Positions 1,488-22,593 of a DNA stretch of 64,000 bases are shown here, one piece after another (within the stretch, counting starts at the first letter, position 1; every line of letters starts with the position of its first letter). Source of the stretch: Bacillota bacterium (GTDB lineage Bacteria > Bacillota > DTU025); NCBI GenBank assembly GCA_028709305.1, contig JAQVXE010000001.1:7477-71476 (forward strand), read 5' to 3'. Below the pieces are notes generated by a model. It was not told the origin of the DNA, did not search any database, and saw nothing but the letters and a program-made list of their open reading frames with translations. The position numbers and the translations under genes were made by a program.

Positions 1488-1530
1488 GCCGCTGGATATA
1501 TCTCAGGGCTGCTGAAAGGTTGATGAACGG

Positions 1531-3356: not shown

Positions 3357-3375
3357 TTCATTTGGAGGTTAGACT

Positions 3376-3882: not shown

Positions 3883-4512
3883 CACTAGCTATTCGGCGGA
3901 CATTTCGGCTATAGCCGGCAGGACATTGCACTTGGCTCATCTGCGTTTTTGGGGGAGTAGACCTTGGTTGGTCTCTCCCCCGCTCGGCCTTGGCGAAATG
4001 GAATCTCCTCGAGGGCCCCATCAGGAAATCTCGCGGGACATTCCGGGTTCTGTCAGGAAGATTGACATAAACATAGGCCAACAATGCATGGGCCGCACTT
4101 CGCTAAGGACTATGATCTGAAACGAGGGGATAGACATGCCCCCAGATCCATGAACAAAGGGATGCAACGCCCGTACTCGTCAAGCAGGGGTAGCCCCCCG
4201 CCTGCGAGTTCTGCAATTAGGCGATGTATCAATGATTCGTTCAGTTTGCTTCTTCGAGACCTGCTGATGTTTGGCGGCATATAGAACCTGTTTGCAAGGA
4301 TGGGCTGCACAAGAGGCAAGTAATGCCAGCAATGCAGCGATCAAGTCCTGATCAGATCATTCCACGCTGTGGAGCCGGGCCAACTAAAGCCAGACTGCGA
4401 TTCGCGGTGCAAAGTGTTGATTTATGGGGGACACAGCGACATTCATGGGGGCAGGCAAATGGCACATGCCAGAAAGTACTGCAACCGATGGACTGAAAGG
4501 AGGTGATGTAGC

Positions 4513-5004
4513 TTGCGAGTACTGACAGGAAGTAACCGAAGGGCGATTCTTGTGGCTCTTGTTCTGTGTCTGGCGGGGTTACAGATTGGCTGCGAGATCG
4601 CCGTAGACATAGGAAAGCCATATATCGGGCGCATGACACTTGACGTACCGAAAGTCGACCTCAGCATGGAGGCTGCCTATGAGGAGTACCTTGCGTGCCC
4701 GGGACAATACCGTGGCTACGAAGTCCAAGGGTACGGTGAAATCGTCTGTCCAGTCAGCACTTCTGTATTCGTGCTCAGGCTTGCTACCCTACGTGCTCGC
4801 TTTATGATGCTGGAGCTAGTAGGTGAAGCCAGAAGTGCGCCGCCTCTTCTGGTAGGCGATAACGTTTGGTTCGGGGGGTGCCTTGACGGAACCAGCTTGG
4901 ATATGGACTGGCACGTTCCTCACGTTGCCGACGATTATGGGGGAGAGGTGATGCCTCGTGTACAGATTTACTACATTCGGACGCTGTCAGGTAATCAGCT
5001 GTAG
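4513..5004 (+). CDS. Exported lipoprotein, paralog 1 of a tandem trio (OB-fold/BOF-like candidate); TTG start with strong RBS
   Basis: Lipobox LAGLQIGC; shared motifs ELVGEARS, VWF.G.LDG, PRV.(I/V)YYI with 5056..5499. Confidence 0.5.
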   Translation: MRVLTGSNRRAILVALVLCLAGLQIGCEIAVDIGKPYIGRMTLDVPKVDLSMEAAYEEYLACPGQYRGYEVQGYGEIVCPVSTSVFVLRLATLRARFMMLELVGEARSAPPLLVGDNVWFGGCLDGTSLDMDWHVPHVADDYGGEVMPRVQIYYIRTLSGNQL

Positions 5005-5055
5005 CGTGGCCACGGCCTTTCGCAGGGTCTATTAAGGGAAAGGAGGGACAATATC

Positions 5056-5499
5056 TTGTTCAAGGCGATACCGAATGGATGGCGCCGGATAATAGCTGTT
5101 GCGATTCTCTCTTTAGCAGTTGCGCAGGCGGGCTGCTATTTGGAGATCGAGGGCCACAGGATCGACTTGGATCGCAAGGCGCGCGAAGCCTACAAAGCCT
5201 ACATAAGCAACCCAGAGGAATACCGCGGACGTGAGATTGAGTGCAAAGGTGAAATCCTACAGGTTCTGCTTGACTTCACGTACCTGTTCTCCACAAACTC
5301 TGTTCCCGACAAGAGCTTTGTTCTGGAGCTTGTTGGCGAGGCCAGGAGCGGACCGATATTGCGGTCTAAGGACCAGGTATGGTTCAAGGGATTTCTGGAT
5401 GGGGTGTCTACCCAATGGGATATCATCACGATTTTGCGGGACAAGCATCGAAACCCGATACCGCGAGTGAAGGTTTATTATATCAAGGTAATCGACTAA
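5056..5499 (+). CDS. Exported lipoprotein, paralog 2 of tandem trio; TTG start with RBS aaaggaggg
   Basis: Lipobox AVAQAGC; clear sequence similarity to 4513..5004. Confidence 0.5.
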   Translation: MFKAIPNGWRRIIAVAILSLAVAQAGCYLEIEGHRIDLDRKAREAYKAYISNPEEYRGREIECKGEILQVLLDFTYLFSTNSVPDKSFVLELVGEARSGPILRSKDQVWFKGFLDGVSTQWDIITILRDKHRNPIPRVKVYYIKVID

Positions 5500-5536
5500 T
5501 GATGCTACCAAAGCCGGGGAGGGAGGCGCAATAATC

Positions 5537-5950
5537 TTGGGCGAAAAGGGTTTCACCATCCTTGACGTGATTCTTCTGGCGCTTGGGATAGTAGCTGTAG
5601 TGGGGTGGGTTTATGCAGGAGTGCGCAACAGCAAGGATTACGAGAGGCTCATGGCAGATCCTGAGCTTGGTGTAGGGCAGCATGTAGCCTCGAGGGTGGT
5701 AGTAACGAAGGTTTTCGATCGGTACTCATGTATTGTTCAATCTCTTGACCTGCGCGATTGTCTTTACCGCCTTGATTTCTTCGATGTGGAGGGAATCCCT
5801 TATCCGAGGCCGGGTGATACCCTCTTCTTCGCGGGAACATTTAGCGGAGTGTACGAGCTTTCAGGCAGGTCAATTCCTAGTATTCGAGTTGGATCCGTGA
5901 GCGACTATGAAGAGAGCAAAGAATGGAAGCTTCAGCCCGTTGTGCGTTAA
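5537..5950 (+). CDS. Membrane-anchored small protein, distant paralog 3 of the trio; TTG start
   Basis: Single N-terminal TM (ILDVILLALGIVAVVGWVYAG), similar size and beta-rich C-terminal pattern. Confidence 0.4.
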   Translation: MGEKGFTILDVILLALGIVAVVGWVYAGVRNSKDYERLMADPELGVGQHVASRVVVTKVFDRYSCIVQSLDLRDCLYRLDFFDVEGIPYPRPGDTLFFAGTFSGVYELSGRSIPSIRVGSVSDYEESKEWKLQPVVR

Positions 5951-6980
5951 TCCCGATCGATTCGGTCTCAAATAGGGGATTGCTAGGGAAAACACTTGAA
6001 TCGTGGGTACTGGGCCCCGGGCTTGCCATGGCCTTAACGGGCCGCGCCTGTGACATGTTGTTAGGCTTATGGAATAAGGCCAAGCATTGTCGGCCAATGG
6101 CCTACAACTTGTGCGTGAGCAAGGAGGGTCGTCAGGTGAGCATCTGAAGGTGACCCTCCTTAGCTATCGAACCTAACCGGATTATCTGCTTAAGGCCTTA
6201 CGATGGCTCCGATTTGCACGTTCCGCAAATATCACAAGCTTGTGTGGCACACTAGAAAGCGCAACCCTCATGGTCGTCTCCATCAGCTCTCCGCTTGCCT
6301 ATGACATGAGGGCAGACTGGCCTTCTTTGCGGCAACCCTTGGGTGCAAACAGAAGTGCAATCGCCGGAATCAGAACGAACCCGCAGCCTAGAGCTGCGCT
6401 GCCTGTCTTCTTCTCCGAGTTCTCGGGTTTGCCCATATGAAACCGCAGCCCCCTACGTCGCCTTTTCCGCTCTTGGGCCTGGCGCGTTTTCTTGCTCGAT
6501 ACCTCCGGGCCCTATAGAGAAGAGTCCGTATATGGTATGACCCACGGCATACGCCCTACTTAGCGTACCACGCATTTTCTGAGGAGAAGACTGCGGCTTC
6601 CCATTCAGCTTACAGGCTCGTGCCCCAGACGACACTGCGATGATAGTGACGGGTGTCAGCGCAGGGTAGGCGACCGATATGACAGTGCCGAACCTCGACG
6701 GACTGAGAGTAGGAGTCAAATGGCACCCACCTGTAGCCATGCTGGCGAACATGCGGCAATCTTCTTGAGAAGCGCCTTAGTCTGGCCAATCACCAGCGTG
6801 CCACGATGCCAGTTGAAATCCTCGAGGGTCAACGACGCAAGCTTCGAACAGCGAAGTCACAGTTCAGATATGCAACGGAAATTGGGCATACACAGGCATC
6901 AAATTTCGCACACGAATACGAACGCGGCTGAGAATTGACGCCAGCCGCGTTTATCATAATGCCTGCCATATAACTATTTG

Positions 6981-7030
6981 ATATGGCGCGCCTGGCAGGA
7001 ATCGAACCTGCGGCCCACGGATTAGAAGTA
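6981..7030 (-). repeat. Partial copy (3' half through anticodon loop) of tRNA-Arg(TCT); 50/50 nt identical to 22211-22260; candidate distal att site of an integrated element
   Basis: atatggcgcgcctggcaggaatcgaacctgcggcccacggattagaag present at both loci; identity ends exactly in the anticodon loop. Confidence 0.75.
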
Positions 7031-7079
7031 GCCTGTGTGAGTGCTTCCTCGCACCTTCCTGTGACGAATATGCCCTCTA

Positions 7080-7800
7080 CGTGCGCCCTGTATGGAGTAT
7101 CCATATCGGGGCGTACGCACAATGACACCGTTTCCGCGTAGTTCGTGACCATCTTGTGACCACTCTCCGGCATGGTAATCCGGCATTGTGGCTAGCCTAT
7201 GTATGGTCACTGGACGTCCGTCCGAACTCCATCTGGTCAAAGGCGATTTTGCAGCATTACATCGGACTCAGCTCTCACGTATGCGGCAAAGACCGAGAAG
7301 GCAGGTTCGCGGTGATCCGCATTCCACGCAGAAAGGCCGTGCGCAAGTTTCTGGACCGGGTCAAGCAATGGCTGAAGGCGCATGGGCACTGGAGACCGCA
7401 CGGCCAGCAGGGTTATTTGAGCAGGATGCTGCGTGGGTTCTACCAGTACTTTGGGCTGTGCCACTGTACCCCAAGCTGGACTATGTGCGAGTCGAAGTTC
7501 AGAAGATGTGGGTGCGATCCCTACGGCGACGGAGCCAGCGGCGCCAACTGTCGTGGGATATCCTTAGCAGTCGGGCGCGGTTCCTGTTACCTGATCCCGA
7601 GGCGGTTCACAGGATAGTCTAGCCAGCTACGCGAGATCTTGGGGAGCCCGGTGCGGGAAATCCGCACGCCGGGTTCTGAGGGGGGGAAAGAGGCGCAAGT
7701 GCCATGCCGGCTTGTCGAGGGCACTGGCCCGAAAGGGCCGGCAAACGGTGAGACTCCACAAAGGCTAAGGCACAAGGCCTCTCTCTACCCACCTCCGGAT
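7080..7800 (+). mobile_element. Group II intron remnant: possible 5' GUGCG, truncated intron-encoded protein, intact domain V and probable domain VI
   Basis: Domain V hairpin GAGCCCGGUGCGGGAAAUCCGCACGCCGGGUUC at ~7640-7675 (AGC triad, GAAA tetraloop); IEP fragment upstream. Confidence 0.6.
7156..7617 (+). pseudogene. C-terminal fragment (domain X/maturase + Zn-finger-like tail) of group II intron reverse transcriptase/maturase
   Basis: RKAVRKFLDRVKQWLKAHGHW...LSRMLRGFYQYFGL matches maturase domain X pattern (R.W.NYY-like); no RT domains upstream. Confidence 0.55.
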
Positions 7801-7994
7801 CCGCGACACATCCGCCAAAACCCGTCCATAGCATGAACGCATCACAAAAGGCCATGCAAATGGGCATTGCGCGGCAAGCGTGCAGCGTACGGCACATATG
7901 CACGGCCCGCTATCGAATCCGAAGTACTCATGCCCACATTGGCTGCGTGCAGACACTGGCTGCTCAGCGAAGCCAAGATACTCATCGGGAATTC

Positions 7995-8399
7995 TCACTC
8001 GACTGACAGTGTGCGAAAGATATCGGCAAGTTGCTGTTTGCTCAGGCCCCCTGAAGCAACGTCGATCATTGCGACATATAGCGTTCCGTCCGGGTCGCGC
8101 GTCTCTATCGCGTTCAGCTCCAGAAAGACTAGAGCGCAAGCTAAGGCGGTTCGTTTGTTGCCGTCGACAAACGGATGGTTGTTGCAGATATGGAATGCGT
8201 AGGCTGCTGCCGCCTCGAAGATGTCTCTATGGAGGAACTCTCCTCCGAACGAGGCCTGAGGCATTGCCAGGGCCGACAGAAGAAGGTCGATGTCTCGAAT
8301 GCCGCGATGGCCACCGTATCGGTTCACTAGGTCCATGTGGACGTCGATCGCCTCATCCAGAGTCAAGAAGATTATACTGTCCATGCCAAAGCACCCCAT
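7995..8399 (-). CDS. doc: Doc/Fic-family toxin (death-on-curing)
   Basis: Fic motif HPFVDGNKRTA; size 134 aa; immediately downstream of AbrB-type antitoxin. Confidence 0.85.
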   Translation of the reverse strand: MGCFGMDSIIFLTLDEAIDVHMDLVNRYGGHRGIRDIDLLLSALAMPQASFGGEFLHRDIFEAAAAYAFHICNNHPFVDGNKRTALACALVFLELNAIETRDPDGTLYVAMIDVASGGLSKQQLADIFRTLSVE

Positions 8400-8417
8400 A
8401 AAGCCTGTAACTGCATG

Positions 8418-8645
8418 CTACTCCGCAAGTTTCCTGAGCGTGGACTCGTGTTCTGCGTTCACCTTGGCGAGCGCTGCCCCGAACAGCTCATCGTGTCCCG
8501 CGTCGCGCACAGGCGAGATGACCAGGTTCTTGCCGTCGGTGACGATCTTCAGGGGGGTGGTCATCGTTATGTCAAGCAGTTCCAGTATTGGTTTGTCGAT
8601 GATCAGCGCCGCGCTGTTTCCATGGGCGGTGAGAGTTTTGATCAT
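8418..8645 (-). CDS. Phd/MazE-like antitoxin with AbrB/SpoVT swapped-hairpin domain (start at internal ATG with RBS GGAGGGG)
   Basis: MIKTLTAHGNSAALIIDKPILELLDI... typical AbrB-fold antitoxin N-terminus; 4-19 nt upstream of doc. Confidence 0.7.
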   Translation of the reverse strand: MIKTLTAHGNSAALIIDKPILELLDITMTTPLKIVTDGKNLVISPVRDAGHDELFGAALAKVNAEHESTLRKLAE

Positions 8646-9025
8646 GGCTGCCCCTCCGGTCAGTATATTGTAATCACAATATATCACCGAACGCAGGCTG
8701 CAGCAAGCGAGCTTACGGTCACAGCGGGCCTACGGGCACGCATCGCGCATAGGCGACAGTGCAAGCCGGCCCAGAGCGAGGGCGTAGGCCGAAGCCATCA
8801 GGCCATGATCTTCAGAGTGTTCCCGGCAGTGTCCCTGCCCACGGTGATTGACAGTATGTTAAGGCGTTCTGGCTGAATTGTACGGCCTATTGGGAGGAGA
8901 ACGGAGGGAGGCCTGTCGAAGAGAGAGGCATCACATGAAAGGAGAGAGATGAAGGGCGCCGGATCGATGAGGTGCTAGCCTCTCCCCGGTAGCCGCTCCA
9001 TCTCCCATCAGCATCTTGATCGTAC

Positions 9026-9616
9026 TTGATTGCTGCGCGGATTGCGAGATCTTGCGACGAAGATGTGATTGAGTTGCTGCGTCGCGGGGTGCGGGAAGGC
9101 TTCGTAAGGTGTCCCGAGTGCGGGGGGCCCATGACGTTGAGAGGGAGCTATGGTCGGAACCTCTGGGTTGCCGAGGGTCCCGACACAGCGCAAGTCCGTA
9201 TGGTACGTGCTGAGTGCCCGCGGTGTGCACGCTCGCATTCCTTGATTCCTTCGGTGCTGACCCCACGGAGTCCCTATCCCCAGTGGATCCGAGAGAAAGC
9301 GGTGCAAGAGCACCAGAGGGGCAAACGCATGAGGGAAATATCGAGAGAGCTGGGTGTGCCGCGTACGACTCTGGGCAGGTGGATTCACGCTTTCAAAGCC
9401 AAGAGGGCAAGAATCGCGGCGGCCATGCGGGCGATTCTAGTCGCCTGCCGCCAGAAGACGGCCGAGGCGCGAGAAACGCTGGCTGAGCTTGTGGGGAGAG
9501 CGAGCCGGGCGTTGGGTTTCAAGGCCAAGTGCAGACTGGTTTCGAGTCAGACGAATGTCCTGTTGTGTTACGCGAAAAGCGAGGGCCATGTGCCCTGGAG
9601 CGTCCCATTGCTGTGA
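9026..9616 (+). CDS. IS-associated HTH/zinc-ribbon protein (CPECGG...CPRCARSH; HTH ISRELGVPRTTLGRW)
   Basis: Motif reading only; sits directly after the shared IS leader repeat and overlaps transposase ORF. Confidence 0.4.
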   Translation: MIAARIARSCDEDVIELLRRGVREGFVRCPECGGPMTLRGSYGRNLWVAEGPDTAQVRMVRAECPRCARSHSLIPSVLTPRSPYPQWIREKAVQEHQRGKRMREISRELGVPRTTLGRWIHAFKAKRARIAAAMRAILVACRQKTAEARETLAELVGRASRALGFKAKCRLVSSQTNVLLCYAKSEGHVPWSVPLL

Positions 9617-10989
9617 CCGCCACGAGATGGACCTCCCTGGCTGGACCTCTCCGGGATATGCTTGATGAGACGACAAACCGGGGAGGGGCGAGGATGAAAA
9701 AGGAAGATGATCGAACAGAACAGGCTCTGGAGAGGTACACGGCTGTTGCCCCGGCTGCGAAGTCGGGCATGAGCCGGGAAGAAGCATCGGAAGCATGGGC
9801 CGAGATCCGCGAGATGAGGGCCAGAAACGTGTCGTCCGGCGCGCCGGACGTGTCGATGCGCACCCTGAGGCGGTGGGCGGCGGCCTACCGGGATGAGGGG
9901 CTTGAAGGGCTGTACAGGAAAGAGAGGTCCGATACCGGATCCGCAAGGGCCCTAAGGTCCAATGTGTTTCAGCGTGCCATAGAGCTCAAGGAGGAGTTGC
10001 CTGGGCGCAGCGTCAGGCAGATCATCGACATCATGACGGCCGAAGGAACCATAGAGCCGGGTGAAGTTGCCAGATCCACGCTCGGCCGCCATCTGAAAGA
10101 AGCCGGGATGATGGATATCCCCAAGCGGACGCCGAAGGGAACCAGCAGGTTCGTCAAGGCACGGCCTAACCAGCTATGGCAGGGCGACATCAAGTACGGG
10201 CCGTACGTGCCGGACGCGTCGGGCAAGCCCAGGCGCACCTATCTCTTCGCCTTTATCGACGACTGTTCGAGGCTGATCCCCCATGCAGAGTTCTACTTCG
10301 ACCAAAAGGGCCACAGCCTGGAAAGCTGCGTGAGACAGGGGATTGTGAAACGCGGCGTACCCGAGGCGGTCTTCGTAGATAACGGGAAGGTGTTCGTGTC
10401 GCACGTATTCCGCGTAGCATGCGCCACGCTGGGCGTTCGGCACCTAACGGCTGCACCCTACAGCCCCCAAAGTAAGTACGCGGGTCTACTGGAGGCCGCA
10501 CACAGATCTGGGCTCAAAGACCTGCAGGTCAAGTTGATTCAGTCACCCAACAGGGACAACGGGTACACCGCTGTGTGCGAGGCCACCGCAGGGATCAAGA
10601 CCAGATCGCGGGAGAAGGTCTATGTCGAGATCGGGGATGCGGACCCAGCATCGATAGGCGACTCCAGGCTCAGCGTGCATGCCATAGGGATAGCGGCCAC
10701 TAGGGCCAAAGCGCGGGCGCTACGGGATGCGTTGCGCATGTCTATCTGCTCGGTGGAGGAACTGGCGCTTGGAGGGCCCCAGCGGGAGGTGTCGGATGCG
10801 CCTGCTCCATCCCAGGCTCCGTCTCAGGATAAGGCAACAGAGGCGCAGCTGCGAGTGCTCAGGATCCAGGCCGATAAGCTTCGACTGCCCGAGGAGGACT
10901 ATGCAAGGTTCGAGTGTATGACCAAGCGTGAGGCCTCGGACGCCATCAGCGACTTCAACCGGCGGCTGAGCAGGTCTCAGGCTGGCTAG
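9529..10989 (+). pseudogene. IS481-family (rve/DDE integrase core) transposase, likely degenerate at 3' end
   Basis: LWQGDIKYGPYV...YLFAFIDDCSRLI and ...FVDNGKVF DDE core; expected PYSPQTNGKVER motif degraded to PYSPQSKYAG. Confidence 0.55.
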
Positions 10990-11254
10990 CGGCAGGCAGC
11001 ATCCTATCCATGACTGGGGGAGGCCATGGCGACCTCCCCCCTTCGCGTATTCGATAGAGGATCGCGAAAGACGTGAAGTCTAGATTAAGCCCATTGATGG
11101 AAGGGTATTGGCAGGCGTGGGCGAACTATCCTATGGAGTTGGAGATACAAGTCTGTATTGTATGCGGTTTTCCAGATAGGCGGTGATCCAAGCCAACACG
11201 GCGTTAGCGGAATCCCAGCGTTCGTGTCTTGACAGAAGATCGGAGGTATGAGTA

Positions 11255-13012
11255 GTGAGAAGAGTACCGGTTCTACTCATGATCATGCTTTGCGTGTTCA
11301 TGGCAGGATGCGCCGGAGGGGGGTGCGATAAATACACTGCCTCAGGGCGAATAACCAGGGCCGACAACCCGCAGCAGGGCGTCGACGGGGTAACCATTGC
11401 TTTCAGTGGAGGTCATGGCACAGCAGGTACTGACGCCAGCGGCAACTTCAGTAAGGGTGGACTAAAGGGCCTCGTGAGCGTGACCCCGGCGAAAGAACAC
11501 TGGGTCTTCGAGCCCGTCTCGAGGCAGGTCAGCGGCGAATCGAGCAATGTGAACTTTGCCGGGCGCAGGTTGCTGACCGATGATGAACTGGAGGCAATCG
11601 AGACGACGAGCGAGCAAGCTACTCAGATGCTCGAATCAGGCAGCACGTACCAGCAGGTCGCCGACTGGCTCAGAGAGCAGAATTGCGTGGAGGAAGTATG
11701 TTACGAATCGGAGATATCGGAGATCCACGTAAAGTACCTAAGCGGAGGCTGGGAATTCTGGATGCCTGCTTCTCCCATGCCCGAAGATGCTGTGGAGTCA
11801 CAATCATTTGCGGAGTTCCCAGGCGTGAACCTTCCAAGGGGGCTTGTTAACCGAAGGGCTGCGGTCATTAACTGCTGGAGCAGTGAACCAAAGATGAGCT
11901 ACGCAAAGGAAGACTTGCTGGGTGCAGTGACTGTCCTGAAGCTGATGGGCTACAGGCCTGAGTACATAGAATCTGGGGGGGACATACTGGAATGCCTGAA
12001 GTCATTGAACGACTGCGCAGTGGTAGTCATGGTTGGTCACGGGAGTGGATCCGCGGATAGACCTCACTCTATCACCACTGGCCTTCCCTGGCAGGATTAC
12101 TATGGGGAGGAATGGTGCCAGGATCTATGGCGTAAGGGGAATGTCCAATACAGCGACAATGAAATCAGATCGTATGTATCAATACTACCGAAATTCTGGA
12201 CAACATACTACTCCAGTAAGCCTTTTGAAAGAACATTGTTTATTAACGGATCCTGTTCGCCATCGAAACCGCGCCCGGAAGGCCTGAACCATTGGGATGC
12301 GCTTTCACAGGTGGGCGTGGAATGTCACATTGGATACGATAGGCTCTGTCACACGGGCCCACTCATGGCCAAAGCCATGCTCAGCAAGCTGCAACTTGGA
12401 CAGAGTACGGGATTCGCCTTTGGTGCATTGCCATGGAACCTGAGGTATCTCTTGCTGCACAACTCTCATCTGAAGCTGGATGGGAATCCCAACCTCTGTA
12501 TAACGGGTCCCCTGCTGTCTACCATCAATATCAACCCAGCGGCTTATCTACTTCCTCAGAGTCAGTGGTCCGGATGGGGGCCGAGCCATCGGTGGTTTTG
12601 GGGACTCTACAGCCAAGCCTGGGGTGGCGGCGTAGGGAATCTCACCTATCATTTTTCTCTGGAAAATGCCATTCATGTAGCGGGAGCCACCATCATGGCA
12701 CGACTATCGGCCGAAACTCTTGGTTTTGGTGGAGGGCCCCCGGATGGGTATTCCGATGTGACCCTCTACCTCAATGGTACGCGTTACGATACGCAGAGAG
12801 TGATTCCAGACGATGGCAAGGGGCAGCGTTACGTATGGGTAGTAGACGGTACGGATATACGCGAAGACAATACATTCAGCTTCGCTGTCGAAGCAACTGC
12901 TGATTATAAGAATGGGCTGGTCATCTATCCAACTGACGACTTTCCCCGGGGTAATGATGACCCTATCACTATCCATGTGTACGGTTCGTTTGGCGGCGGC
13001 GGTGGATGGTGA
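11255..13012 (+). CDS. Large secreted lipoprotein; N-terminal carboxypeptidase-regulatory-like domain; central region with candidate caspase-fold (clan CD) His/Cys dyad (VVMVGHGSG ... FINGSCS)
   Basis: Lipobox FMAGC; H...C spacing ~75 aa as in gingipain/caspase-like peptidases; Gly-rich C-terminus. Confidence 0.45.
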   Translation: MRRVPVLLMIMLCVFMAGCAGGGCDKYTASGRITRADNPQQGVDGVTIAFSGGHGTAGTDASGNFSKGGLKGLVSVTPAKEHWVFEPVSRQVSGESSNVNFAGRRLLTDDELEAIETTSEQATQMLESGSTYQQVADWLREQNCVEEVCYESEISEIHVKYLSGGWEFWMPASPMPEDAVESQSFAEFPGVNLPRGLVNRRAAVINCWSSEPKMSYAKEDLLGAVTVLKLMGYRPEYIESGGDILECLKSLNDCAVVVMVGHGSGSADRPHSITTGLPWQDYYGEEWCQDLWRKGNVQYSDNEIRSYVSILPKFWTTYYSSKPFERTLFINGSCSPSKPRPEGLNHWDALSQVGVECHIGYDRLCHTGPLMAKAMLSKLQLGQSTGFAFGALPWNLRYLLLHNSHLKLDGNPNLCITGPLLSTININPAAYLLPQSQWSGWGPSHRWFWGLYSQAWGGGVGNLTYHFSLENAIHVAGATIMARLSAETLGFGGGPPDGYSDVTLYLNGTRYDTQRVIPDDGKGQRYVWVVDGTDIREDNTFSFAVEATADYKNGLVIYPTDDFPRGNDDPITIHVYGSFGGGGGW

Positions 13013-13508
13013 GGACTCATGGTCATCCAATGCCAGAAACAGCAGAAATCGAGTTGTGTATACGCCACATTGGAGTGAGCCTGGCCCCATTCCTCCGGCA
13101 GATGACCTACATCAGGGTTGATGATAAGCTTCTTCGTTTTCATTGCGCACCTAGAATAGCCTGAAATGAACAGGCCATTTCAGTAACTTTCAGCTGATGC
13201 CAAGACTTCTGCAGTTCATATGGTAATGGAGGAGTACAACAACAAATGCCACGAGGCTCCCTTCTCTAGTATGCTTGGGTTGAACAAAACCGCAGCTAGA
13301 GGAGTGATCTCGTGGCTAGACCAAGTATACCACGCGGGCGAGTTTCTGGAAACGTGTCTATGCGGCTGACGGGCATGAAACGTCAGGTTACCTCATTGGG
13401 AGGCCTTCCGGCGGTTAGGATGGCTTGGGACACGCTTGGCATGAACTGCATCCTCCTGGAGCACGGTTTTGAGAAGCGGAGCGGAGTGCCGGCTACGGAG
13501 CTTTTGCC

Positions 13509-14645
13509 GTGACGGTTGAGCATCTCGCTCAAGCCCGATCCAATGTCGAATTGGAGAAGGCACTACAGGATCCGGTTTTGGCCGCGTGCATCGGCGGTCG
13601 GCAGGTAGACGAGACAACGCTCTCAAGGTTTCGCAACGACAACCGTTTCGACTGGGGCGGAGTCTTGGAGGGTGTAGGTGAGCGCCTTCAGGCCTTTGAC
13701 TTGACCCGAGCAGATGAAGAAGGAATTCTGATTGTCGACGATACGATCGCCGAGAAGGCGGGAGAGAAGATTGAGGGCGTTCGGAGGCTGTATGATTCTT
13801 CAGCCGAAAGGTACGTGACCGGGCATTCGATAGTGAACCTTGTGTATTCGGGCAGACGCGTGTTCTACCCGTTGGCGTGTGAAATCGTGCTCCCCAGCAG
13901 CGACGGTATGGAGTACCTCACCAAGAATGATCTTGCGCTGTGCATGCTTAAGGGCGCTGTGCGGAGAGGCTTCAGGCAGACGGTGGTGCACGACTCGGCG
14001 TACCTATGCGATGACCTCATGCAGTTCCTAGATTCCGCAAACGTGCCCTGGGTCTCCAAGTGCAAGAGCAACCGGATCCTGGTCTACCGCGGGCAAAGGC
14101 TTCACGCCCATGAGCTCGGCTCTATACTTGCCAGGAGCAGGTTCCGGAGACACAAGCGCTACCGCGACATCGAATACGCGTCGGCCATTGCTGAACTGCC
14201 TGGTCACGGTCTGTGCCGGTTCGTCGTTGTGAGAAACTTCAGGGAAGATGAGCCGGAAGGAGCTGACGTGGGAGTCAAATACCTGCTCGCAAGCGATGAA
14301 AGCGTACACGGATCAACGGTGGTGCGGCTGTACAAGATGCGCTGGAAGGTGGAAGAGCATCACCGTTCGGCCAAGCAGGATCTGGGGCTAAAGGATTACC
14401 AGGGGCGGAAGCTCCGGGGCGTCATAGCCCATCTGATGTCGGTTGCCCTCGCGCACATACTCGTCGTGTTCATGAAAGCATGCCTGCCGAGGTTGAAAGG
14501 CGCCAGCACGGGACAGCTTGTCCGCGACTTCATATGCACATCGTGCCGCGTGAACAGCCACGGGGCGAGGCTAACCGTTCTGTATGATAGGATCCTGCCA
14601 TACTCAGAAGCCATACGGCATTACCAAATGGCTCGTGCTGGTTAG
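13509..14645 (+). CDS. IS4/IS701-family DDE transposase
   Basis: ILIVDDTIAEK..., YKMRWKVEEHHRSAKQDLGL (Y-x2-R-x3-E-x6-K signature). Confidence 0.8.
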   Translation: MTVEHLAQARSNVELEKALQDPVLAACIGGRQVDETTLSRFRNDNRFDWGGVLEGVGERLQAFDLTRADEEGILIVDDTIAEKAGEKIEGVRRLYDSSAERYVTGHSIVNLVYSGRRVFYPLACEIVLPSSDGMEYLTKNDLALCMLKGAVRRGFRQTVVHDSAYLCDDLMQFLDSANVPWVSKCKSNRILVYRGQRLHAHELGSILARSRFRRHKRYRDIEYASAIAELPGHGLCRFVVVRNFREDEPEGADVGVKYLLASDESVHGSTVVRLYKMRWKVEEHHRSAKQDLGLKDYQGRKLRGVIAHLMSVALAHILVVFMKACLPRLKGASTGQLVRDFICTSCRVNSHGARLTVLYDRILPYSEAIRHYQMARAG

Positions 14646-14932
14646 TCTGGAATCTCAACTGCAGAAGTTTTGTGATGCAATCAGGTCTATTGATGGTACG
14701 CCAGAAGCTGTGATAGCGTAAGGCTCTTGCTACATCAATACCGGCCCAAAGCGCTCAAATACACACAGTAGTGTTGACTACGCCCTACGAAATCTGCCTT
14801 TGCAGGGCCCTACCACGTAACGGAGGCCCTCTGTTGGACTCCTTCAGTGTTGTAGAGTCCGCGGTTCAGCATTTTTTCTGAAAGCAGCCTGAGGAAGCAG
14901 GTACTATGCGACGGATGTCGAATGCATAAAGC

Positions 14933-15646
14933 ATGAACGACACAGTCATTGCCACAACCAATGAAATAGCCGAACTTAGGGGCTTGGCTGAGCAGTATGC
15001 TGAACTCTGTATTCTCGTTGACCAACTGAAGTAAGAAAACGCTGAGCTAGCCGCCAAAGTCAAGTGGTATGGAGAGCAGTTCCGCTTGAGCCAGAAGCGG
15101 CGCTTCGGCGCTTCCAGCGAAAAGACGGATTGCGAGCAATTGCGGCTCTTCAACGAAGTTGAGGCGGAGGCTCAACCGCTTCTGGCTGAACCTACGATCG
15201 AAAAAATCACCTATCAGCGCCACAAACAAAAGGGTCGGCGCGAGGCTATCCTTTCTGACCTGCCCGTGGAGACGGTAGAATACCGCCTTCCAGAAGAGGA
15301 GCAGGTCTGTCCCTCTTGTGGCGGCCCTTTGCATGAGATGAGCACTGAAGTGCGGCGAGAGCTTAAAGTCATTCCCGCTCAGGTTAAGGTCGCAGAGCAT
15401 GTGCGCCTCGTCTATTCTTGCCGCCGGTGTGAGCAAGAAGAGATCAATACGCCTGTAGTAACAGCGCCGATGCCTGCGCCTGTATTGAAAGGGAGCCTGG
15501 CTTCACCTTCAGCCCTGGCCTACATCATGACCCCAAAATACGTTGAAGGCATGCCGCTCTATCGCCAGGAGCAGCAGTTCGCCCGTTTGGGAATAGGCCT
15601 TTCCCGACAGACGCTGGCTAACTGGATGCTCTACGGGGCCAAGAAT
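14933..15646 (+). pseudogene. IS66-family transposase TnpC N-terminal part; in-frame TAA at 15031-15033, then interrupted by IS21 insertion; short continuation at 18433-18503
   Basis: [30 protein letters not shown] leucine-zipper/Zn-finger region, CPSCGG...[29 protein letters not shown]; resumes WLTPLYERMHEHLL after IS21. Confidence 0.7.
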
Positions 15647-15654
15647 TGCATATT

Positions 15655-15835
15655 CCGGCCCAAATCGTCCACCGATTCCGGGACAATTCGTCCACCCATT
15701 CCGATTGAACTCGTCCACTGATTCCGGAGCAAACAATCCACCGTTTCCGGAGCAATTCGTCCACTGATTCCGGCTCAAATCGTCCATCGATTCCGGAGCA
15801 ATTCGTCCGGGGCGGCTGCCTCGGTTCGGAGCTGA
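15655..15835. repeat. Array of ~6 sub-terminal direct repeats (~24 nt, core TCGTCCAC.GATTCCGG) at IS21 left end; mirrored inverted at 18270-18430
   Basis: Visible iterated 'tcgtccac(c/t)gattccgg(a/g)gcaa' units; IS21 family known to carry multiple terminal transposase-binding repeats. Confidence 0.7.
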
Positions 15836-15914
15836 AGCACGCCGGCAACAATGCCACAGGATAGCCGCGTAGAGTCACCGAACTCCCGTAAGCAAGATGC
15901 TTCTAGGAGGGTGA

Positions 15915-17462
15915 TTGAGGGCTGTGGCAAACAGGAGGTTGTCGATGCGCAAGATCAAGGAGATTCTGAGGCTTTATCACGAGGTGGGGTTGAGCCGTCG
16001 CCGGATTGCCGAAAGCCTACAAGCTGCCCATAGCACTGTCGGCGATGTGATCAGGAGAGCCAACGGCGTCGGGCTCGGCTGGCCGATCCCGGACACCATG
16101 ACTTGGGACGATGTGGAGCGTTTGCTTTATCCGGGCAACACGAACAAGCCCAGGACGAGGCCTATGCCGAAGTGGGAACAGATCCACCGCGAGCTTAAGA
16201 GCAAGAAGTCCGTTACCCTGCAGCTTCTATGGTATGAGTACAAGCAGGAAAATCCGGATGGAGTCCAGTACAGCCAGTTCTGCGCCTACTATCGCGAATG
16301 GGTACGCAAGCTTGATGTTGTCATGCGGCAGACGCATCGCGCCGGAGAGAAGATGTTCGTGGACTTCGCCGGACAGACCGTACCGATACGGGATCGGACC
16401 TCGGGCGAAATCAAGGAGGCGTACGTGTACGTTGCGGTATTGGGGGCGAGCAACTATACGTATGCGGAGGCCACGATGACGCAGGATCTGAAATCATGGG
16501 TGAACTTGACCCGGAACGCCCTGGAGTTCTTCAAGGGATCGACGGAGATATGGGTACCCGATAATCTCAAGACCGGAGTGACGAACGCATGCCGCTACGA
16601 GCCGGACATAAACCCTACCTACAGCGAGATGGCCGAGCATTACGGCGCGGTGGTTATCCCGACGCGGCCCCGAAAGCCGAAGGACAAAGCGAAGGTCGAG
16701 AAGGGAGTGCAAGTGGTAGAGCAATGGATACTGGCCGCAATACGCAAGATCACCTTCTTCGACCTGCACCAGCTGAACGGCGTCATCAAGGAGAAGCTGG
16801 ACGTACTGAACAACAAACCGTTTCAGAAGATGGACGGGACGCGCAGGTCCGTGTATGAGCAGATAGATAAGCCGGCGCTCAAGCCCCTTCCGCAGACGCC
16901 CTACGTGTTCGCTAGATGGAAGAAGGCAACCGCTAACATCGACTATCACATTTCGGTGGACCACAACCTATACAGTGTTCCGTACACCCTCGTAGGCCAT
17001 GAGCTCGATGTTCGCCTAACTGGTAGCACCGTGGAGGTATTCAGCCGGGGCCAAAGGGTAGCAATCCATCAGAGGGCCATAGGTCGAGGGCAGGTCGCCA
17101 CGGAACCAAGCCACCGGCCCGTATCGCACCAAAAGCACCTCGAATGGACGCCCGAACGAATGATACGCTGGGCTGAATCGGTGGGGCCCAACACTGGCAA
17201 GCTCGTGAAGATGATACTCGAAAGAAGGCCCCACCCGGAACAGGGATACCGCTCGTGCCTGGGGATCATCAGACTGGCGAAAGCCTATTCAGCGGAGAGA
17301 CTGGAAGCGGCGGCAGCCAGGGCGCTGGCGCTGGGAGGCATCTCATACAAGAGCGTAAAGTCCATTCTCAAGAACGGGCTGGATCAGGTTCCCCTGCCCG
17401 ACCAGACGCCTCAGGCGATGCCCGCCCATACCAATGTCCGCGGACCAGGCTACTTCAACTAG
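15915..17462 (+). CDS. istA: IS21-family transposase IstA
   Basis: N-terminal HTH, rve DDE core (FVDFAGQT..., YVAVLGASNYTYAEA), length 515 aa. Confidence 0.9.
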   Translation: MRAVANRRLSMRKIKEILRLYHEVGLSRRRIAESLQAAHSTVGDVIRRANGVGLGWPIPDTMTWDDVERLLYPGNTNKPRTRPMPKWEQIHRELKSKKSVTLQLLWYEYKQENPDGVQYSQFCAYYREWVRKLDVVMRQTHRAGEKMFVDFAGQTVPIRDRTSGEIKEAYVYVAVLGASNYTYAEATMTQDLKSWVNLTRNALEFFKGSTEIWVPDNLKTGVTNACRYEPDINPTYSEMAEHYGAVVIPTRPRKPKDKAKVEKGVQVVEQWILAAIRKITFFDLHQLNGVIKEKLDVLNNKPFQKMDGTRRSVYEQIDKPALKPLPQTPYVFARWKKATANIDYHISVDHNLYSVPYTLVGHELDVRLTGSTVEVFSRGQRVAIHQRAIGRGQVATEPSHRPVSHQKHLEWTPERMIRWAESVGPNTGKLVKMILERRPHPEQGYRSCLGIIRLAKAYSAERLEAAAARALALGGISYKSVKSILKNGLDQVPLPDQTPQAMPAHTNVRGPGYFN

Positions 17463-18234
17463 GAGGCCCGATGAAATGTTGGTTGAACACACCATAACAC
17501 GGCTGAACGACATGCGCCTGGCCGGAATGAGCGAAGCCTATTCGTGGCAAAGGGAAAAGCCCAACATACATGAGTTGTCTTTCGACGAACGCTTCGGCAT
17601 GCTGGTTGACCGGGAATGGGCTTGTCGGCAGGACAGACGGCTGTCTCGCCTGCTCAAGGCGGCCAAGTTGCGTCTCCCGGCATGCGTTGAGGACATCAAC
17701 TACCGGCAACCCCGCGACCTCGACCGGAACACTATCGTTCACCTGGCTGCATGCGATTGGATCAGGAACGCTCAGAACGTCCTGATCACCGGGCCGACGG
17801 GCGTGGGCAAGACGTTCATAGCCTGTGCCCTGGCTCACTCCGCTTGCCGCCACGGATTCAGCGCGCGGTACTACAGAGTGCCGCGCCTGCTATCCGAACT
17901 AACTGTCGCCCATGGCGACGGATCGTATCCCCAGTTGCTAAGCAGACTGTCGAGGACACGCCTACTGATATTGGACGACTGGGGAACGGCGCCGCTGGGG
18001 CCCTCGGAAAGCCACGACATCCTGGAGATCGTCGACGATCGCAGCCAGCTGTCCTCCACGATCATTGCCGGCCAACTCCCGGTTGAAGACTGGCATGCAT
18101 CTATCATCGACCCGTCCGTGGCAGATGCAGTCCTTGACCGCCTTGTTCACAATTCACACAGAATACGCCTGAAAGGGGAGTCGATGAGGAAGGTAGAGCA
18201 GCGACCGCAGCGAACCATTGACCAAGGGACATGA
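17434..18234 (+). CDS. istB: IS21-family helper ATPase IstB (true start likely ~17473)
   Basis: Walker A GPTGVGKT, Walker B LLILDDWG, IstB-like length. Confidence 0.9.
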   Translation: MSADQATSTRRPDEMLVEHTITRLNDMRLAGMSEAYSWQREKPNIHELSFDERFGMLVDREWACRQDRRLSRLLKAAKLRLPACVEDINYRQPRDLDRNTIVHLAACDWIRNAQNVLITGPTGVGKTFIACALAHSACRHGFSARYYRVPRLLSELTVAHGDGSYPQLLSRLSRTRLLILDDWGTAPLGPSESHDILEIVDDRSQLSSTIIAGQLPVEDWHASIIDPSVADAVLDRLVHNSHRIRLKGESMRKVEQRPQRTIDQGT

Positions 18235-18547
18235 TCCCATACCGTGCGTCGCTTCGCTCCGACCTGGCCAGCCGGGGCCTTTCAGAACCACCGGATTCTT
18301 TGCCCCGCGGAACAGGTGGACGAATTGCCCCGGACCAGCTGGACGATTTGGATCGGAACAGGTGGACGAATTGGGCCGGAACGAGTGGACGCTTTCCTCC
18401 GGACCAGGTGGACGATTTCATCGGAATACGCAAGAACTGGCTCACACCCCTTTATGAAAGAATGCATGAGCATCTTCTAGGAGCCTGTGCGAGTAATATC
18501 TGAATCGGAGTACAGGAAAACGCAGCTACATAGCGAATTAACATAGT

Positions 18548-19036
18548 ATGAGTAAGACATACAGGCCTTACAACCCAGATCAAATGTATCTGTTGCCGCC
18601 ATCCCTCAAGGACTGGCTTCCGGAGGGACATCTGGCGTACTTCGTAAGCGATCTCGTCGATCAGCTGGACCTCTCGGCCATCGAGCAAGTCTATGAGCGA
18701 GAGGAGAGAGGCTATCCGCCTTGCCACCCGAGGATGATGGTAAAGGTCCTGCTATACGCCGAATGCGTTGGAGTTCGTTCCTCCAGGAAGATCGAAAAGC
18801 GCCTTGTAGAGGATGTAGCGTTTCGAGTTCTCGGGGCGGGCAACACGCCAGCGTTCAGAACTGTAGCCGAGTTTCGCAGCCGGCACTTGAAGGAGCTTGC
18901 AGCGCTGTTTGCACAGGTTCTGACGGTCTGTTGGAAGTCGGGACTTGTATCGCTCAAGCACGTCGCGCTTGACGGCACAAAGATCAGGGCGAACGCTTCC
19001 AAACACACCTCTGTTTGGCAAGTAGAAAGTGCATAG
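18548..19036 (+). pseudogene. IS1182-family transposase, N-terminal fragment (interrupted by second IS21)
   Basis: YNPDQMYLLPPSLKDWLPEGHLAYFV...GYPPCHPRMMVKVLLYAECVGVRSSRKIE...DGTKIRANASKH. Confidence 0.7.
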
Positions 19037-19102
19037 TTCGGCGGCCGAAATGTGCATAGGCTAACCGCCGCGCCTGGGGTTGGGTCTTCGTACCCTTCGG
19101 GG

Positions 19103-19885
19103 CTAGGCCGTCGGGTTGAGGGTCTCCCGCCCGGAGCCCATCCCGTCAGATTCTCTCGGTGCGTTTAGTTGTGAGAGAGCATTCCGTAGTCGATAACTCT
19201 CGCCGGTGAACGCCAGCACGTGTCCGTGGTGGACGAGCCTGTCGATGAGCGCGGCGGTCAACCGGTTGTCGTTGATCAACGTGTTCCACTGTCCGAATTC
19301 GAGGTTCGTGGTGATGGCCACGCTTCGACGCTCGTAACAGTTGGCTATCACCTGGAACAGAAGCTCGGCCGCGTGGCGATGCAGGGGCAAGAAGCCCAGC
19401 TCGTCCACGATGAGCAGATCGCATGACTCGAGGTCACGCGTGAAGCTTCCCAGCGTCCCCTTTGCGTTTTTCTCCAGCAGGCGATTGGCCAGATCAACCG
19501 TTTGGAAGAAGCGCACCTCCTTTCCGCTTAGGGCTGCCTTCAGTCCCAGCGCTATCACAAGATGCGTCTTGCCCGTTCCCACGCCGCCCATGCAGATCAA
19601 GGACTCCTTGGCATCAATGAAGTCCAGCTCTGTTAGGTGCTCTCTAGTGGTCTGCGGGGGCAGTACGATGTTCTCCCAGGAGAACTCCTCTAGCGTTTTC
19701 GTCTGGGGGAAGCCTGCGCGTTTCAGTCTGCGCCGGTTTCGGTTGTCTTCACGTATCTTCAGTTCCTCTGCAAAGAGGTCCGTCAGGAACTGCTCGCTGC
19801 TCTCGAGGGCAATCTGCGTGTAGATCCGGCTCACCGATCCAAGCTTAAGCGCTTTGCACTGCTCTTGGAGAAGAGCGGACTTCAT
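19103..19885 (-). CDS. istB: IS21-family IstB ATPase
   Basis: GGVGTGKTHL Walker A, LLIVDELG Walker B. Confidence 0.9.
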   Translation of the reverse strand: MKSALLQEQCKALKLGSVSRIYTQIALESSEQFLTDLFAEELKIREDNRNRRRLKRAGFPQTKTLEEFSWENIVLPPQTTREHLTELDFIDAKESLICMGGVGTGKTHLVIALGLKAALSGKEVRFFQTVDLANRLLEKNAKGTLGSFTRDLESCDLLIVDELGFLPLHRHAAELLFQVIANCYERRSVAITTNLEFGQWNTLINDNRLTAALIDRLVHHGHVLAFTGESYRLRNALSQLNAPRESDGMGSGRETLNPTA

Positions 19886-21399
19886 CTCGTCGCCACCCCC
19901 TCCAGCCGTGTCGGCAGCAGCCGGTCGTAGAGAGTGGAATCCGGATCGTAAGCCGCCACTTCCAGCGGCGTGTAGCCCTCGGCTATGGGTTCGGGAGTCC
20001 GGTTCTCCGGGCGGAGCGAATAGAGCTTGAGCTCGAGGTTCGCCGGATTGGCCCGCCTGTCGGCGGGCAGCGCCTCAAGCGCTTCTGCGATCTGATCAAT
20101 GCTATAGGTCTTCAGCGCGTCTCGCAGGGCTCGGACTCGAATCGCCCGGTCTGGCGCATCGGCTTCCTGCAGATACGCTCGGACCGCTTCAGGCAGATGG
20201 CGAAACATGGCTGAGTGCACAGCCGCTCGCGGACGATGCGAATAGATCTCAAACAGGGCCGGCCAGTCAATTGGTTGTTCTTTGAGCATGTAGCTCCTCG
20301 GCAGAGTCGTGAGAAGCTCGCCTTCCCGATTCCGTACTTCGATTCGATCCCAATACACGCTGAGCAGAACCCTTTGCCGCGGTTTGCCTTGCGGCACAGC
20401 ATAGGTCGCCTTCTCGAAACGGAACTGCGCGTAGTTGTTCAGTACTGCATGATCGAGCCGCATGGCTTCGAACGGAACGTTTGGCAGCGGCAATAGCGCC
20501 GATCGCTCCTCCTCCCAAAGGTCGCTGATCTTCCTGTCGGCCTTGTAGTGAACGCGGTCCATGTCCTTCACAGCCTCGGTCGCCAGCAGCTCGCCCAGCT
20601 CCTCGAAGCTGTTGAGGGGATGAATAGGGCATAGCCATTGCCTGCGCGTGTATCCCACCTTGTTCTCAACGTTGCCCTTTTCGTTGCCTCTTGCCGGCCC
20701 GCAGAAGTCCGCTTCGAAGCGGTGGTGAAGCTGAAACCGCATGAACGCCTCGGTTAGCACTCGCTCCTCTCCTTCCCCGATGCTTGCCACCGCGGCCGAC
20801 ATGTTATCCAACACCAATCTCCGGGGCACGCCTCCTGCCTGCTCAAACAGCAGCTTTAGCCCTTCCAAGAAGCATTCCGTGTTCTCGGACGGCATCGGGA
20901 CTGCGAAACCTGCATTTGACCACGGGAACGAGAGGACAAGCGACTTGATCTCGATGATCTTGCCATCTCGCACGCAGCGGACTGTTCCGAAATCCGCCTG
21001 GGCCTCCCCAATCGGGTGTTCAAGTTCAACGTATGCACTGCTATCGCCCTTGAACAGCTCGCCGCGCCGCTTCTGAACGTACTCCCTTACTGTACGTTCC
21101 CCGCCCTTAAAGCCATGGGCGTCTCGAAGCTCTCGATAAATGGCTGCGGCATTACGGCGATCCTTTCTGGGCAGTAATCGATCTTCAAGCAGCCAAGTGT
21201 CAACGATCTCCGCTACAGGATCCATAACTGGCCTCCGCTTGGCTCGGGCGCTGGGCATAGGCTCGTTCCAGTCATCCCGCTGAGCGTATTTTGCTGCCGT
21301 CCGCCAACACACGCCGGTCCGTTTAGCAATTGCGCTGATCGATGCCTCTTCGCTTTCATACGCATGCTTGATATACTCTTGTACAGGCATAGCTATCAC
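19882..21399 (-). CDS. istA: IS21-family transposase IstA
   Basis: HTH N-terminus + rve DDE core; overlaps istB by 4 nt. Confidence 0.9.
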   Translation of the reverse strand: MIAMPVQEYIKHAYESEEASISAIAKRTGVCWRTAAKYAQRDDWNEPMPSARAKRRPVMDPVAEIVDTWLLEDRLLPRKDRRNAAAIYRELRDAHGFKGGERTVREYVQKRRGELFKGDSSAYVELEHPIGEAQADFGTVRCVRDGKIIEIKSLVLSFPWSNAGFAVPMPSENTECFLEGLKLLFEQAGGVPRRLVLDNMSAAVASIGEGEERVLTEAFMRFQLHHRFEADFCGPARGNEKGNVENKVGYTRRQWLCPIHPLNSFEELGELLATEAVKDMDRVHYKADRKISDLWEEERSALLPLPNVPFEAMRLDHAVLNNYAQFRFEKATYAVPQGKPRQRVLLSVYWDRIEVRNREGELLTTLPRSYMLKEQPIDWPALFEIYSHRPRAAVHSAMFRHLPEAVRAYLQEADAPDRAIRVRALRDALKTYSIDQIAEALEALPADRRANPANLELKLYSLRPENRTPEPIAEGYTPLEVAAYDPDSTLYDRLLPTRLEGVATR

Positions 21400-21522
21400 T
21401 CCGTCTTACCTCCCGATTGGCCGTAACCTAATCTGAGGAGGTATTCTATACGGCGCGGTGGCTATGCCTTCTTCGCCAGCCGACGTTGTGACATTTTCAC
21501 CGCCGATCTATGCAATTCCATT

Positions 21523-21918
21523 ATGCCGAAAAGAGCCGATGCCGGCTACTTCAGCGAGAAGAATGTGACCTTTCTTGAGAAGCGGAAAATCAACGCATAC
21601 ATTCCTCCCGACAAACAAAAGCACAGCGCGCCCGCTGAACCAGCGCCAAGAGGTCGAATACCGTCCGATTTATCCTGCAAGGAGCGAATGCGGCGAAAAC
21701 TAAGGACGGTACGCGGACGCGAAGCCTATGCCCTGAGAAAACAGATCGTCGAACCGGTCTTCGGCCAAGTAAAGACAGTGCAAGTCATACGCCAGTTGCT
21801 GCTTCGGGGCAAACCAAAGGTGCGAGCAGAGTGGCTGATCGTATGCACAGCGCACAACATACTGAAACTCTTCAGGTCCGGGAGACAGGCGAATATGGCA
21901 GTACTGTGCCCAACATAG
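21523..21918 (+). pseudogene. IS1182-family transposase C-terminal fragment
   Basis: ADAGYFSEKNVTFLEKRKINAYIP...IVEPVFGQVK...RGKPKVRAEWLIVCTAHNILKL. Confidence 0.65.
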
Positions 21919-22213
21919 CCCAACACCCGTCCCGCAAGGATACGTCAGGGCCCCAACACGGGTGGTATGGTGTTATCAAGGAGCACGCAGCCTTCATGGT
22001 CGATGAATGCGCCTACGCTAACCCATTGGGGCTGAGTTACTCGCACAGGCTCCTAGCAGTTATTAACCCTCAGCCTGCGTAGGCTGGCGTCGCCCTACTC
22101 GATTCTGGCTGCTCTCATCTGGTGGTTTGCAGATCCGTTTGCAAAACAAAAAGACCTGCCCGTTGGCAGATCTACCCAGTTACCGAAACCCCAGTCTATA
22201 AAGGGTTTAATAT

Positions 22214-22288
22214 GGCGCGCCTGGCAGGAATCGAACCTGCGGCCCACGGATTAGAAGTCCGTTGCTCTATCCCCTGAGCTACAGGCGC
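22214..22288 (-). tRNA. tRNA-Arg (anticodon UCU), CCA encoded
   Basis: Manual cloverleaf: GCGCCUG acceptor, D-arm UAGCUCAGGGGAUAGAGC, anticodon loop CUUCUAA, T-arm GCAGGUUCGAUUCCUGC, 3' CAGGCGC-G-CCA. Confidence 0.85.
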
Positions 22289-22593
22289 GCAAAACATGTT
22301 GCCGGATACCACATCCAGCAGAAAACATTATAACACCGCGTCAAGTTCAAGTCAAAACCAAACTCCGCGCTGTTCAGCCGCAGTGTTGCTCGGTGGATGG
22401 CCTGAATATGCAGCGGCCCATCACGTAGTGGGGGCGATGCAAACCGTTAAGAACTATGGCGTTAGTAAAAAACGCCAGGCAAGCGCAGTGAAATCATCAC
22501 TGCATAACCATGCACTTGCATTGCATGATAATGCGGAGTATAATGGTCGGCATAGCCATTCATCAAACATACTGAAGGGGGATTCCGTTCAAG

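Follow-up and report, generated by a model that had tools for sequence, protein, structure and literature searches.

The 64-kb stretch of DNA analysed here (the window, whose own numbering is used throughout) comes from contig JAQVXE010000001.1 of the Bacillota assembly GCA_028709305.1. It contains a 15.2-kb interval lying between an intact tRNA-Arg(UCU) gene and a second, displaced copy of the 3′ part of that gene. The interval is filled largely with insertion sequences (IS), and it is very probably a decayed genomic island, i.e., what is left of an element that entered the tRNA gene by means of a tyrosine integrase.

The tRNA-Arg(UCU) gene, its displaced 3′ part and the adjoining arm

The single intact tRNA-Arg(tct) gene in the window lies at 22213–22288 on the minus strand (detected by ARAGORN, and by the Rfam tRNA model at 73.4 bits), with a promoter-like site at 22327–22355. 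A direct repeat of 53 nt with one mismatch (98% identity) links positions 22206–22258, which overlap this gene, with positions 6977–7029, also on the minus strand; the two copies are 15,229 nt apart from start to start. The exact core of the repeat is 49 nt (6981–7029 and 22210–22258), and when up to three mismatches were allowed this core had two matches in the window, against 0.00 expected from 100 shuffles. The repeat comprises nt 31–76 of the tRNA, i.e., its last 46 nt, followed by 3′ flank, of which 3 nt are shared exactly and 7 nt with one mismatch. Its first base is the final one on the 5′ side of the anticodon stem, three bases ahead of the anticodon. The 3′ part of the tRNA is displaced in the same orientation, and the limit of the block, at the edge of the anticodon loop, coincides with a recognised crossover sublocation.

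The first-pass annotation had described this repeat as the last 50 nt of the tRNA, with a right-hand copy at 22211–22260 and identity stopping inside the anticodon loop. The repeat itself is real, but the right-hand copy of its core is at 22210–22258, it is made up of 46 nt of tRNA plus flank, and identity ends at nt 31, on the edge of the loop rather than within it. A second full tRNA gene at the repeat, which the same annotation had raised as an alternative, was found at 6981–7029 by neither ARAGORN nor Rfam. No 5′ half adjoins the fragment there, and the sequence on its 5′ side (from 7030 onward) bears no relation to a tRNA. Contigs from independent assemblies (L022, L026, L045, L046, L047 and L051) span the left-hand fragment with both of its flanks at 99.9–100% identity, and the right-hand copy is spanned by one contig (L032/L034); the junctions are therefore real and not products of assembly.

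The key test was whether the DNA that directly follows the rebuilt tRNA on its 3′ side belongs to an element, as integration here would require. Exactly 65 nt from the 3′ end of the tRNA, at 22120–22147, lies a 28-nt motif, TGGTGGTTTGCA[AG]AT[CT][CG]GTTTGCAAAAC, that occurs once in the window and had no match in viral contigs. The motif and its 65-nt spacing are shared by six arms, i.e., those of the window and of contigs L001, L033, L036, L039 and L038, the last of which carries it at a different tRNA. Because the motif moves with an integrase to a different tRNA and is also present in an attP-like form (described below), it is borne by the element. Since its motif belongs to the element, the segment 22060–22209 (minus strand) is the integrase-side (P′) arm of the left attachment site (attL), and is element rather than chromosomal DNA. 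Within this arm, a hairpin at about 22072–22087 occupies the position of a hairpin found downstream of the integrase gene (int) in the relatives, and an intrinsic terminator for the tRNA is supplied at 22152–22173. We infer that two TTTGCA[AG]A repeats in the arm are putative arm-type binding sites for the integrase. The right attachment site (attR) would consist of the core at 6977–7029 and a distal (P) arm at 7030–7250, to which no strand was assigned. The distal arm is DNA of unknown origin that lacks the motif and is present only in contigs of the same species. When 7030–8930 was compared with a collection of phage DNA there was no match, and comparison with a plasmid collection yielded nothing useful.

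A gene with Phage_int_SAM_3 and Phage_integrase domains lies directly upstream of the arm in L033, L036, L038 and L039. L033, from assembly GCA_028703975.1, represents a near-identical strain (99.7% identity over 13 kb of the right flank, by exact-protein look-ups), in which the integrase gene ends 172 nt after the same tRNA; the full-length form of this integrase (P0001) has 407 aa. In L036 the order is an HTH_17 gene, a gene for a 322-aa protein, int, the arm, the 3′ half of tRNA-Arg, and then non-tRNA DNA, i.e., an attP-like junction. The copy of the tRNA borne by that element ends within 1 nt of the boundary of the fragment in the window. L039 and L040, from another species, have a truncated integrase, the arm and an intact tRNA-Arg(tct), and the integrase of L038, at its different tRNA, is 70% identical. 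The integrase family to which P0001 and P0006 belong shows 38–51% identity to provirus-terminal integrases in IMG/VR. Of the arms in this family, the one most similar to that of the window accompanies an integrase of the P0006 type. L033 (13168–14479), L036 (1–3361) and L038 (1–10542) outline a family of small integrative elements, with an HTH_17 excisionase-like gene, a gene for a protein of about 320 aa and an integrase of 407–412 aa, that targets the 3′ halves of tRNA genes; cargo in L038 includes an N6_N4 methyltransferase, a ResIII helicase and a DnaC/IstB-like ATPase.

Within the species collection, the nearest genome (88% identity in the neighbouring peptidase) is represented by L001, from contig JBMNJT010000008.1 of 557 kb, where the tRNA adjoins an M20 peptidase gene. 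For 125 nt downstream of the tRNA, L001 and the window are 91% identical, after which L001 passes into ISLre2 and IS256 sequences. A first impression that this shared flank was conserved chromosomal DNA was overturned when the same motif was found in the arms of integrase-bearing relatives. At 6805–9465 of L001, about 145 nt downstream of tRNA-Arg(tct), there are an ISLre2/UPF0236 element and an IS256 fragment but no integrase, and beyond the IS elements come an ABC exporter and a LytTR two-component locus. An element at this tRNA seems to have decayed in parallel in that species.

Interior of the interval and probable loss of the integrase

About 70% of the 15.2-kb interior is IS or intron sequence, which bears out its earlier description as an IS graveyard. 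The only other genes are those for a Doc toxin with its antitoxin partner and for one lipoprotein. Six-frame translation of the gaps revealed nothing gene-like, no phage structural, lysis or replication genes were found among the open reading frames (ORFs) or gap fragments of the interval, and there were no Pfam or NCBIfam matches in it to a relaxase, a coupling protein or type IV secretion components. The earlier report that no integrase gene survives was also upheld: no trace of one was detected in a six-frame translation of the whole window, either by tblastn with the integrase of L033 as query or by a profile hidden Markov model built from 80 homologues.

The integrase appears to have been lost at the right-hand end of the interior, where the IS elements are nested. 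An N-terminal fragment of an IS66 transposase gene (15086–15645, plus strand) is split by a first IS21 copy, resumes at 18435–18473 and is then cut by an IS1182 element. IS21 copy 1 (15646–18429, plus strand; istA 15915–17462, istB 17434–18234) is flanked by an AAGAA target duplication and carries arrays of 23-nt terminal direct repeats (15652–15835 and 18308–18422), six on the left and at least four on the right, in inverted orientation; they resemble the several terminal binding sites for the transposase that elements of the IS21 family characteristically have. The left part of IS1182 (18474–19029, plus strand) has its inverted repeat at 18474–18496 and corresponds to transposase profile positions 1–158 of 488. 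It is separated from the right part (21517–22059, plus strand; transposase C-terminus, about positions 357–488, and inverted repeat at 22037–22059) by IS21 copy 2 (19030–21516, minus strand; istA 19882–21399, istB 19103–19885), which has no target duplication. About 600 nt from the middle of IS1182 is absent beside IS21 copy 2.

On its right side IS1182 runs, with its inverted repeat, as far as 22059, a short distance downstream of where the stop codon of the integrase aligns. IS1182 is flanked on the left by IS66 coding sequence and on the right by the hairpin region of the attL arm, with no target duplication. These mismatched flanks, together with the lack of a duplication at IS21 copy 2, indicate at least one IS-linked deletion or recombination. 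Such an event or events would have eliminated the remainder of IS66, the central part of IS1182 and the integrase, along with the DNA between them, and a deletion linked to IS1182 and IS21 is the likely cause of the loss of the integrase.

The remaining features occupy the left-hand half of the interior. A 5′-truncated group II intron remnant (7255–7797, plus strand) consists of a maturase (X/thumb) pseudogene at 7276–7610, with a frameshift near 7470, and RNA domains V–VI at 7642–7794 (RF00029, 46.1 bits; GIIM; tblastn with P0122). Whether this remnant reached the boundary of the tRNA fragment at 7030, which would favour a truncated tRNA gene, was considered and ruled out, its homology beginning only at about 7255–7276. 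A gene for a Doc (Fic-fold) toxin follows at 7995–8399 on the minus strand (PF02661, 7.6e-19; TIGR01550, 1.1e-16), and immediately upstream of it, at 8418–8687 on the same strand, is a putative gene for the partner antitoxin, whose match to TIGR02609 (2.5e-4) is below the cutoff.

An IS481-like element (8929–10989, plus strand) comprises a leader repeat at 8929–9049, an ORF with DUF6431 and helix-turn-helix domains at 9026–9616, and an rve transposase ORF at 9529–10989, in different frames. The leader belongs to a 123-nt non-coding repeat whose other copy, 84% identical, lies at 202–322; one copy is upstream of the DUF6431 ORF and the other upstream of an ORF at 329–628 in the left flank. Both copies fold as a long imperfect hairpin, with z-scores that range, by copy and strand, from −0.6 to −2.7, and neither matched Rfam. 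The repeat could represent the end or leader of an IS, or else a small hairpin element that is itself mobile.

The sole cargo gene that is neither IS nor toxin encodes a modular lipoprotein of 585 aa with no family assignment (11255–13012, plus strand), whose signal sequence ends in FMAGC. Its N-terminal unit of about 80 aa (residues 25–105) recurs in other proteins, in as many as 16 copies, and its middle and C-terminal (about 410–580) domains are found separately elsewhere. There are 937 relatives at E ≤ 1e-3, few of them full-length, and a single-sequence AlphaFold model, with a mean predicted local distance difference test score (pLDDT) of 37, was too poor to use. The gene is followed by an IS of the IS701/IS4 type with 21-nt inverted repeats (13201–14672, plus strand). 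The gene inventory given in the first-pass annotation therefore stands for the intron (as a 3′ remnant), Doc with its partner, the IS481-like element, IS701, the IS66 fragment, the split IS1182 and the two IS21 copies. Its label of the lipoprotein as caspase-like does not, there being no supporting sequence match in Pfam, NCBIfam or the PDB.

Population, flanks and origin of the interval

Look-ups with the 585-aa lipoprotein gene returned at least 19 contigs, and those with Doc at least 13. They come from many different runs and samples, among them SRR2420280, ERR13909482, SRR11702764 and JGI 3300064082, and all were collinear with the window at 99.9–100% identity, so the remnant is carried unchanged. 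The sister assembly GCA_028703975.1 holds both contigs of the old island (L026 and L053) and the integrase-bearing attL of L033. Either a live element sits in tandem beside the relic in that strain, or the metagenome-assembled genome mixes strains.

The predicted empty site (attB), searched for in metagenome contigs as an exact 69-nt pattern joining left flank, core and the 5′ part of the tRNA, gave no matches. A control pattern taken only from the left flank was likewise without matches; the collection therefore lacks this species. Synteny was followed through the neighbouring M20 peptidase gene. Only in L001 is the tRNA kept beside it, the other 19 relatives checked having no tRNA-Arg there. 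An alpha-amylase gene follows the peptidase gene in the window and L001, and in L002, L004, L005 and L006, which are more distant relatives, it is followed by sdaAB-sdaAA (at about 11.7–13.3 kb in L002). From these different genes after the peptidase, we conclude that rearrangement around the tRNA has occurred between species.

One further contig, L023, is 99.96% identical to the window over 1490–6845 and then continues into sdaAA, sdaAB and ECF transporter genes, the junction being at L023 5356/5357 (window 6845/6846). There is no IS at this junction. The sdaAA gene is about 15 codons short, and its frame carries on for 43 codons within the shared sequence. That L023 might be the ancestral empty site, with a remnant of sdaAA left in the window, was considered and rejected, because the SDH_alpha domain is complete in L023, natural homologues have 299 aa and the junction lies at residue 281. 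L023 is a derived junction, arising by strain rearrangement, or a chimeric one. Also in the left flank, downstream of an FtsX-like/ABC pair at 1531–3356, three tandem paralogous ORFs (163, 147 and 137 aa; 4513–5950) share the motif LELVGEARS..P......VWF.G.LDG and have no Pfam match.

We put a probability of roughly 0.85 on the interval being the worn remnant of a tyrosine-integrase element inserted at tRNA-Arg(UCU). The reading of the repeat as attL and attR, proposed in the first-pass annotation, is borne out by the arm motif, by the integrase-bearing relatives and by the attP-like junction in L036. In the proposed sequence of events, an element with a phage-type tyrosine integrase and its own tRNA-Arg(UCU) 3′ part would have recombined with the chromosomal tRNA at the anticodon-loop sublocation. 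A functional tRNA would have been rebuilt from the chromosomal 5′ part and the 3′ part of the element (attL, 22206–22288), and the original 3′ part would have been displaced by about 15.2 kb (attR, 6977–7029). The group II intron, the IS481-like element, IS701, IS66, IS1182 and the two IS21 copies would be later gains, and a deletion or recombination tied to IS1182 and IS21 copy 2 would have taken out the integrase and neighbouring modules. The remainder would then have been unable to move itself, and would have been carried unchanged by the population.

Several observations weigh against this account. The distal arm (7030–7250) has no recognisable arm sites or homologues, so that the two ends are not tied to one element. 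No unoccupied site was found, and L001, from the closest other species, also bears an element-type arm and IS elements. The G+C fraction is 0.569 inside the interval compared with 0.529 on the left and 0.551 on the right, which is a small shift. Finally, the succession of IS events and the deletion of the integrase are deduced from mismatched flanks, and were not observed.

The absence of the proximal-arm motif from the distal arm would also fit the collapsed remains of two or more tandem elements, whose internal att copies and integrases were lost in IS deletions, so that the two arms come from different elements. The site has evidently been reused, since GCA_028703975.1 has a live integrase element (L033) as well as contigs of the old island (L026 and L053); at least two interior junctions have mismatched flanks, which point to deletions, and Islander lists 125 tandem arrays (PMC4383910). 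However, the window has only two copies of the core, no second integrase, arm, phage or integrative and conjugative element (ICE) module is recognisable in the interior, and a single insertion suffices to account for the evidence, so that we regard a tandem origin as unlikely.

An origin without any integration is much less credible still. The fragment at 6981–7029 might be what remains of a duplicated tRNA-Arg(UCU) gene in an IS-rich region of the chromosome, its 5′ part having been destroyed by some unrelated event such as the arrival of the intron, whose remnant is about 220 nt away; the search for an empty site, too, found none. Yet the intron homology begins at about 7255 and not at 7030, the boundary at nt 31 agrees to within 1 nt with the point where the element-borne copy in L036 stops, an integrase arm adjoins the intact tRNA, and a displaced 3′ part in direct orientation is just what integration predicts. 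We judge this explanation very improbable. That the repeat is an artefact of assembly or a chimera has a probability close to nil: many short-read contigs do end inside the repeat, at about 7006–7010, but breaks near 7010 are to be expected of a 31-mer graph at a 49-nt repeat, and the independent assemblies run through both the attR junction and the interior at 99.9–100%, with one running through attL.

Returning to the remnant of a single integrase element, its earlier description as fixed in place is plausible, being identical in at least 19 contigs. On the other hand, neither att core has been damaged, and in the sister strain the rebuilt tRNA (attL) still functions as a landing site for a living relative with its own integrase, so that excision in trans is conceivable. 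The relic, with both 53-nt cores intact, might be excised or carried in trans by the integrase of a live relative, as a cis-mobilisable passenger, with the tRNA acting as a tandem island site; we advance this only tentatively, and consider it rather doubtful.

For annotation, positions 6977–22258 can be marked as decayed DNA of horizontal origin; the lineage that carries it is an uncultured one of Bacillota, from metagenomes of the anaerobic-digester type. Because it has no integrase, the island would be missed by island finders that rely on one. The family-specific attachment arm, i.e., the 28-nt motif 65 nt from the end of the tRNA, can be used to flag such integrase-less remnants in other genomes.

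Comparison with known systems

In the Islander collection (Hudson, Lau & Williams 2015, PMC4383910), a 3′ fragment of the tRNA was present in 3760 of 3919 islands, and attP was centred on the anticodon in 2083. The crossover sublocations given there (classes of Williams 2002) are the anticodon loop, the T loop and the junction of the T and acceptor stems. Like those islands, the interval in the window has an intact tRNA at one end, a 3′ fragment in direct repeat at the other and an integrase-side arm by the tRNA, and its block of identity runs from the edge of the anticodon loop through the 3′ end of the tRNA. Unlike them, it lacks an integrase, for which the integrase filter of Islander would reject it, and its interior consists mostly of IS elements rather than phage or ICE genes. 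Having no internal integrase, it is a remnant of an island of the Islander type and not a complete member.

A second comparison is with DLP12, the defective prophage at argU in Escherichia coli K-12, which occupies the same isoacceptor, tRNA-Arg(UCU). As annotated, DLP12 starts at nt 33 of argU, in the anticodon loop, is about 21 kb long, and is interrupted by IS3 and IS5. It has kept intD beside argU together with many lambdoid genes (lysis genes, Q, nohD and tail-fibre fragments), whereas the interval in the window has no recognisable phage gene. At the level tested, neither the hosts nor the integrases are related.

The closest counterpart is the live sister element encoding P0001, integrated in L033 and in attP-like form in L036. 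It shares with the window the tRNA-Arg(tct) target, a core end within 1 nt, the 28-nt motif and the 65-nt spacing; the rest of its arm is about half identical, and its distal arm differs. Unlike the window, it retains int, the gene for the 322-aa protein and the HTH_17 (excisionase-like) gene. The island in the window is best assigned to the P0001/P0006 integrase family, as what remains of one of its elements without the integrase. As such, it is an ordinary, well-understood kind of genomic island, and poses no challenge to current understanding.

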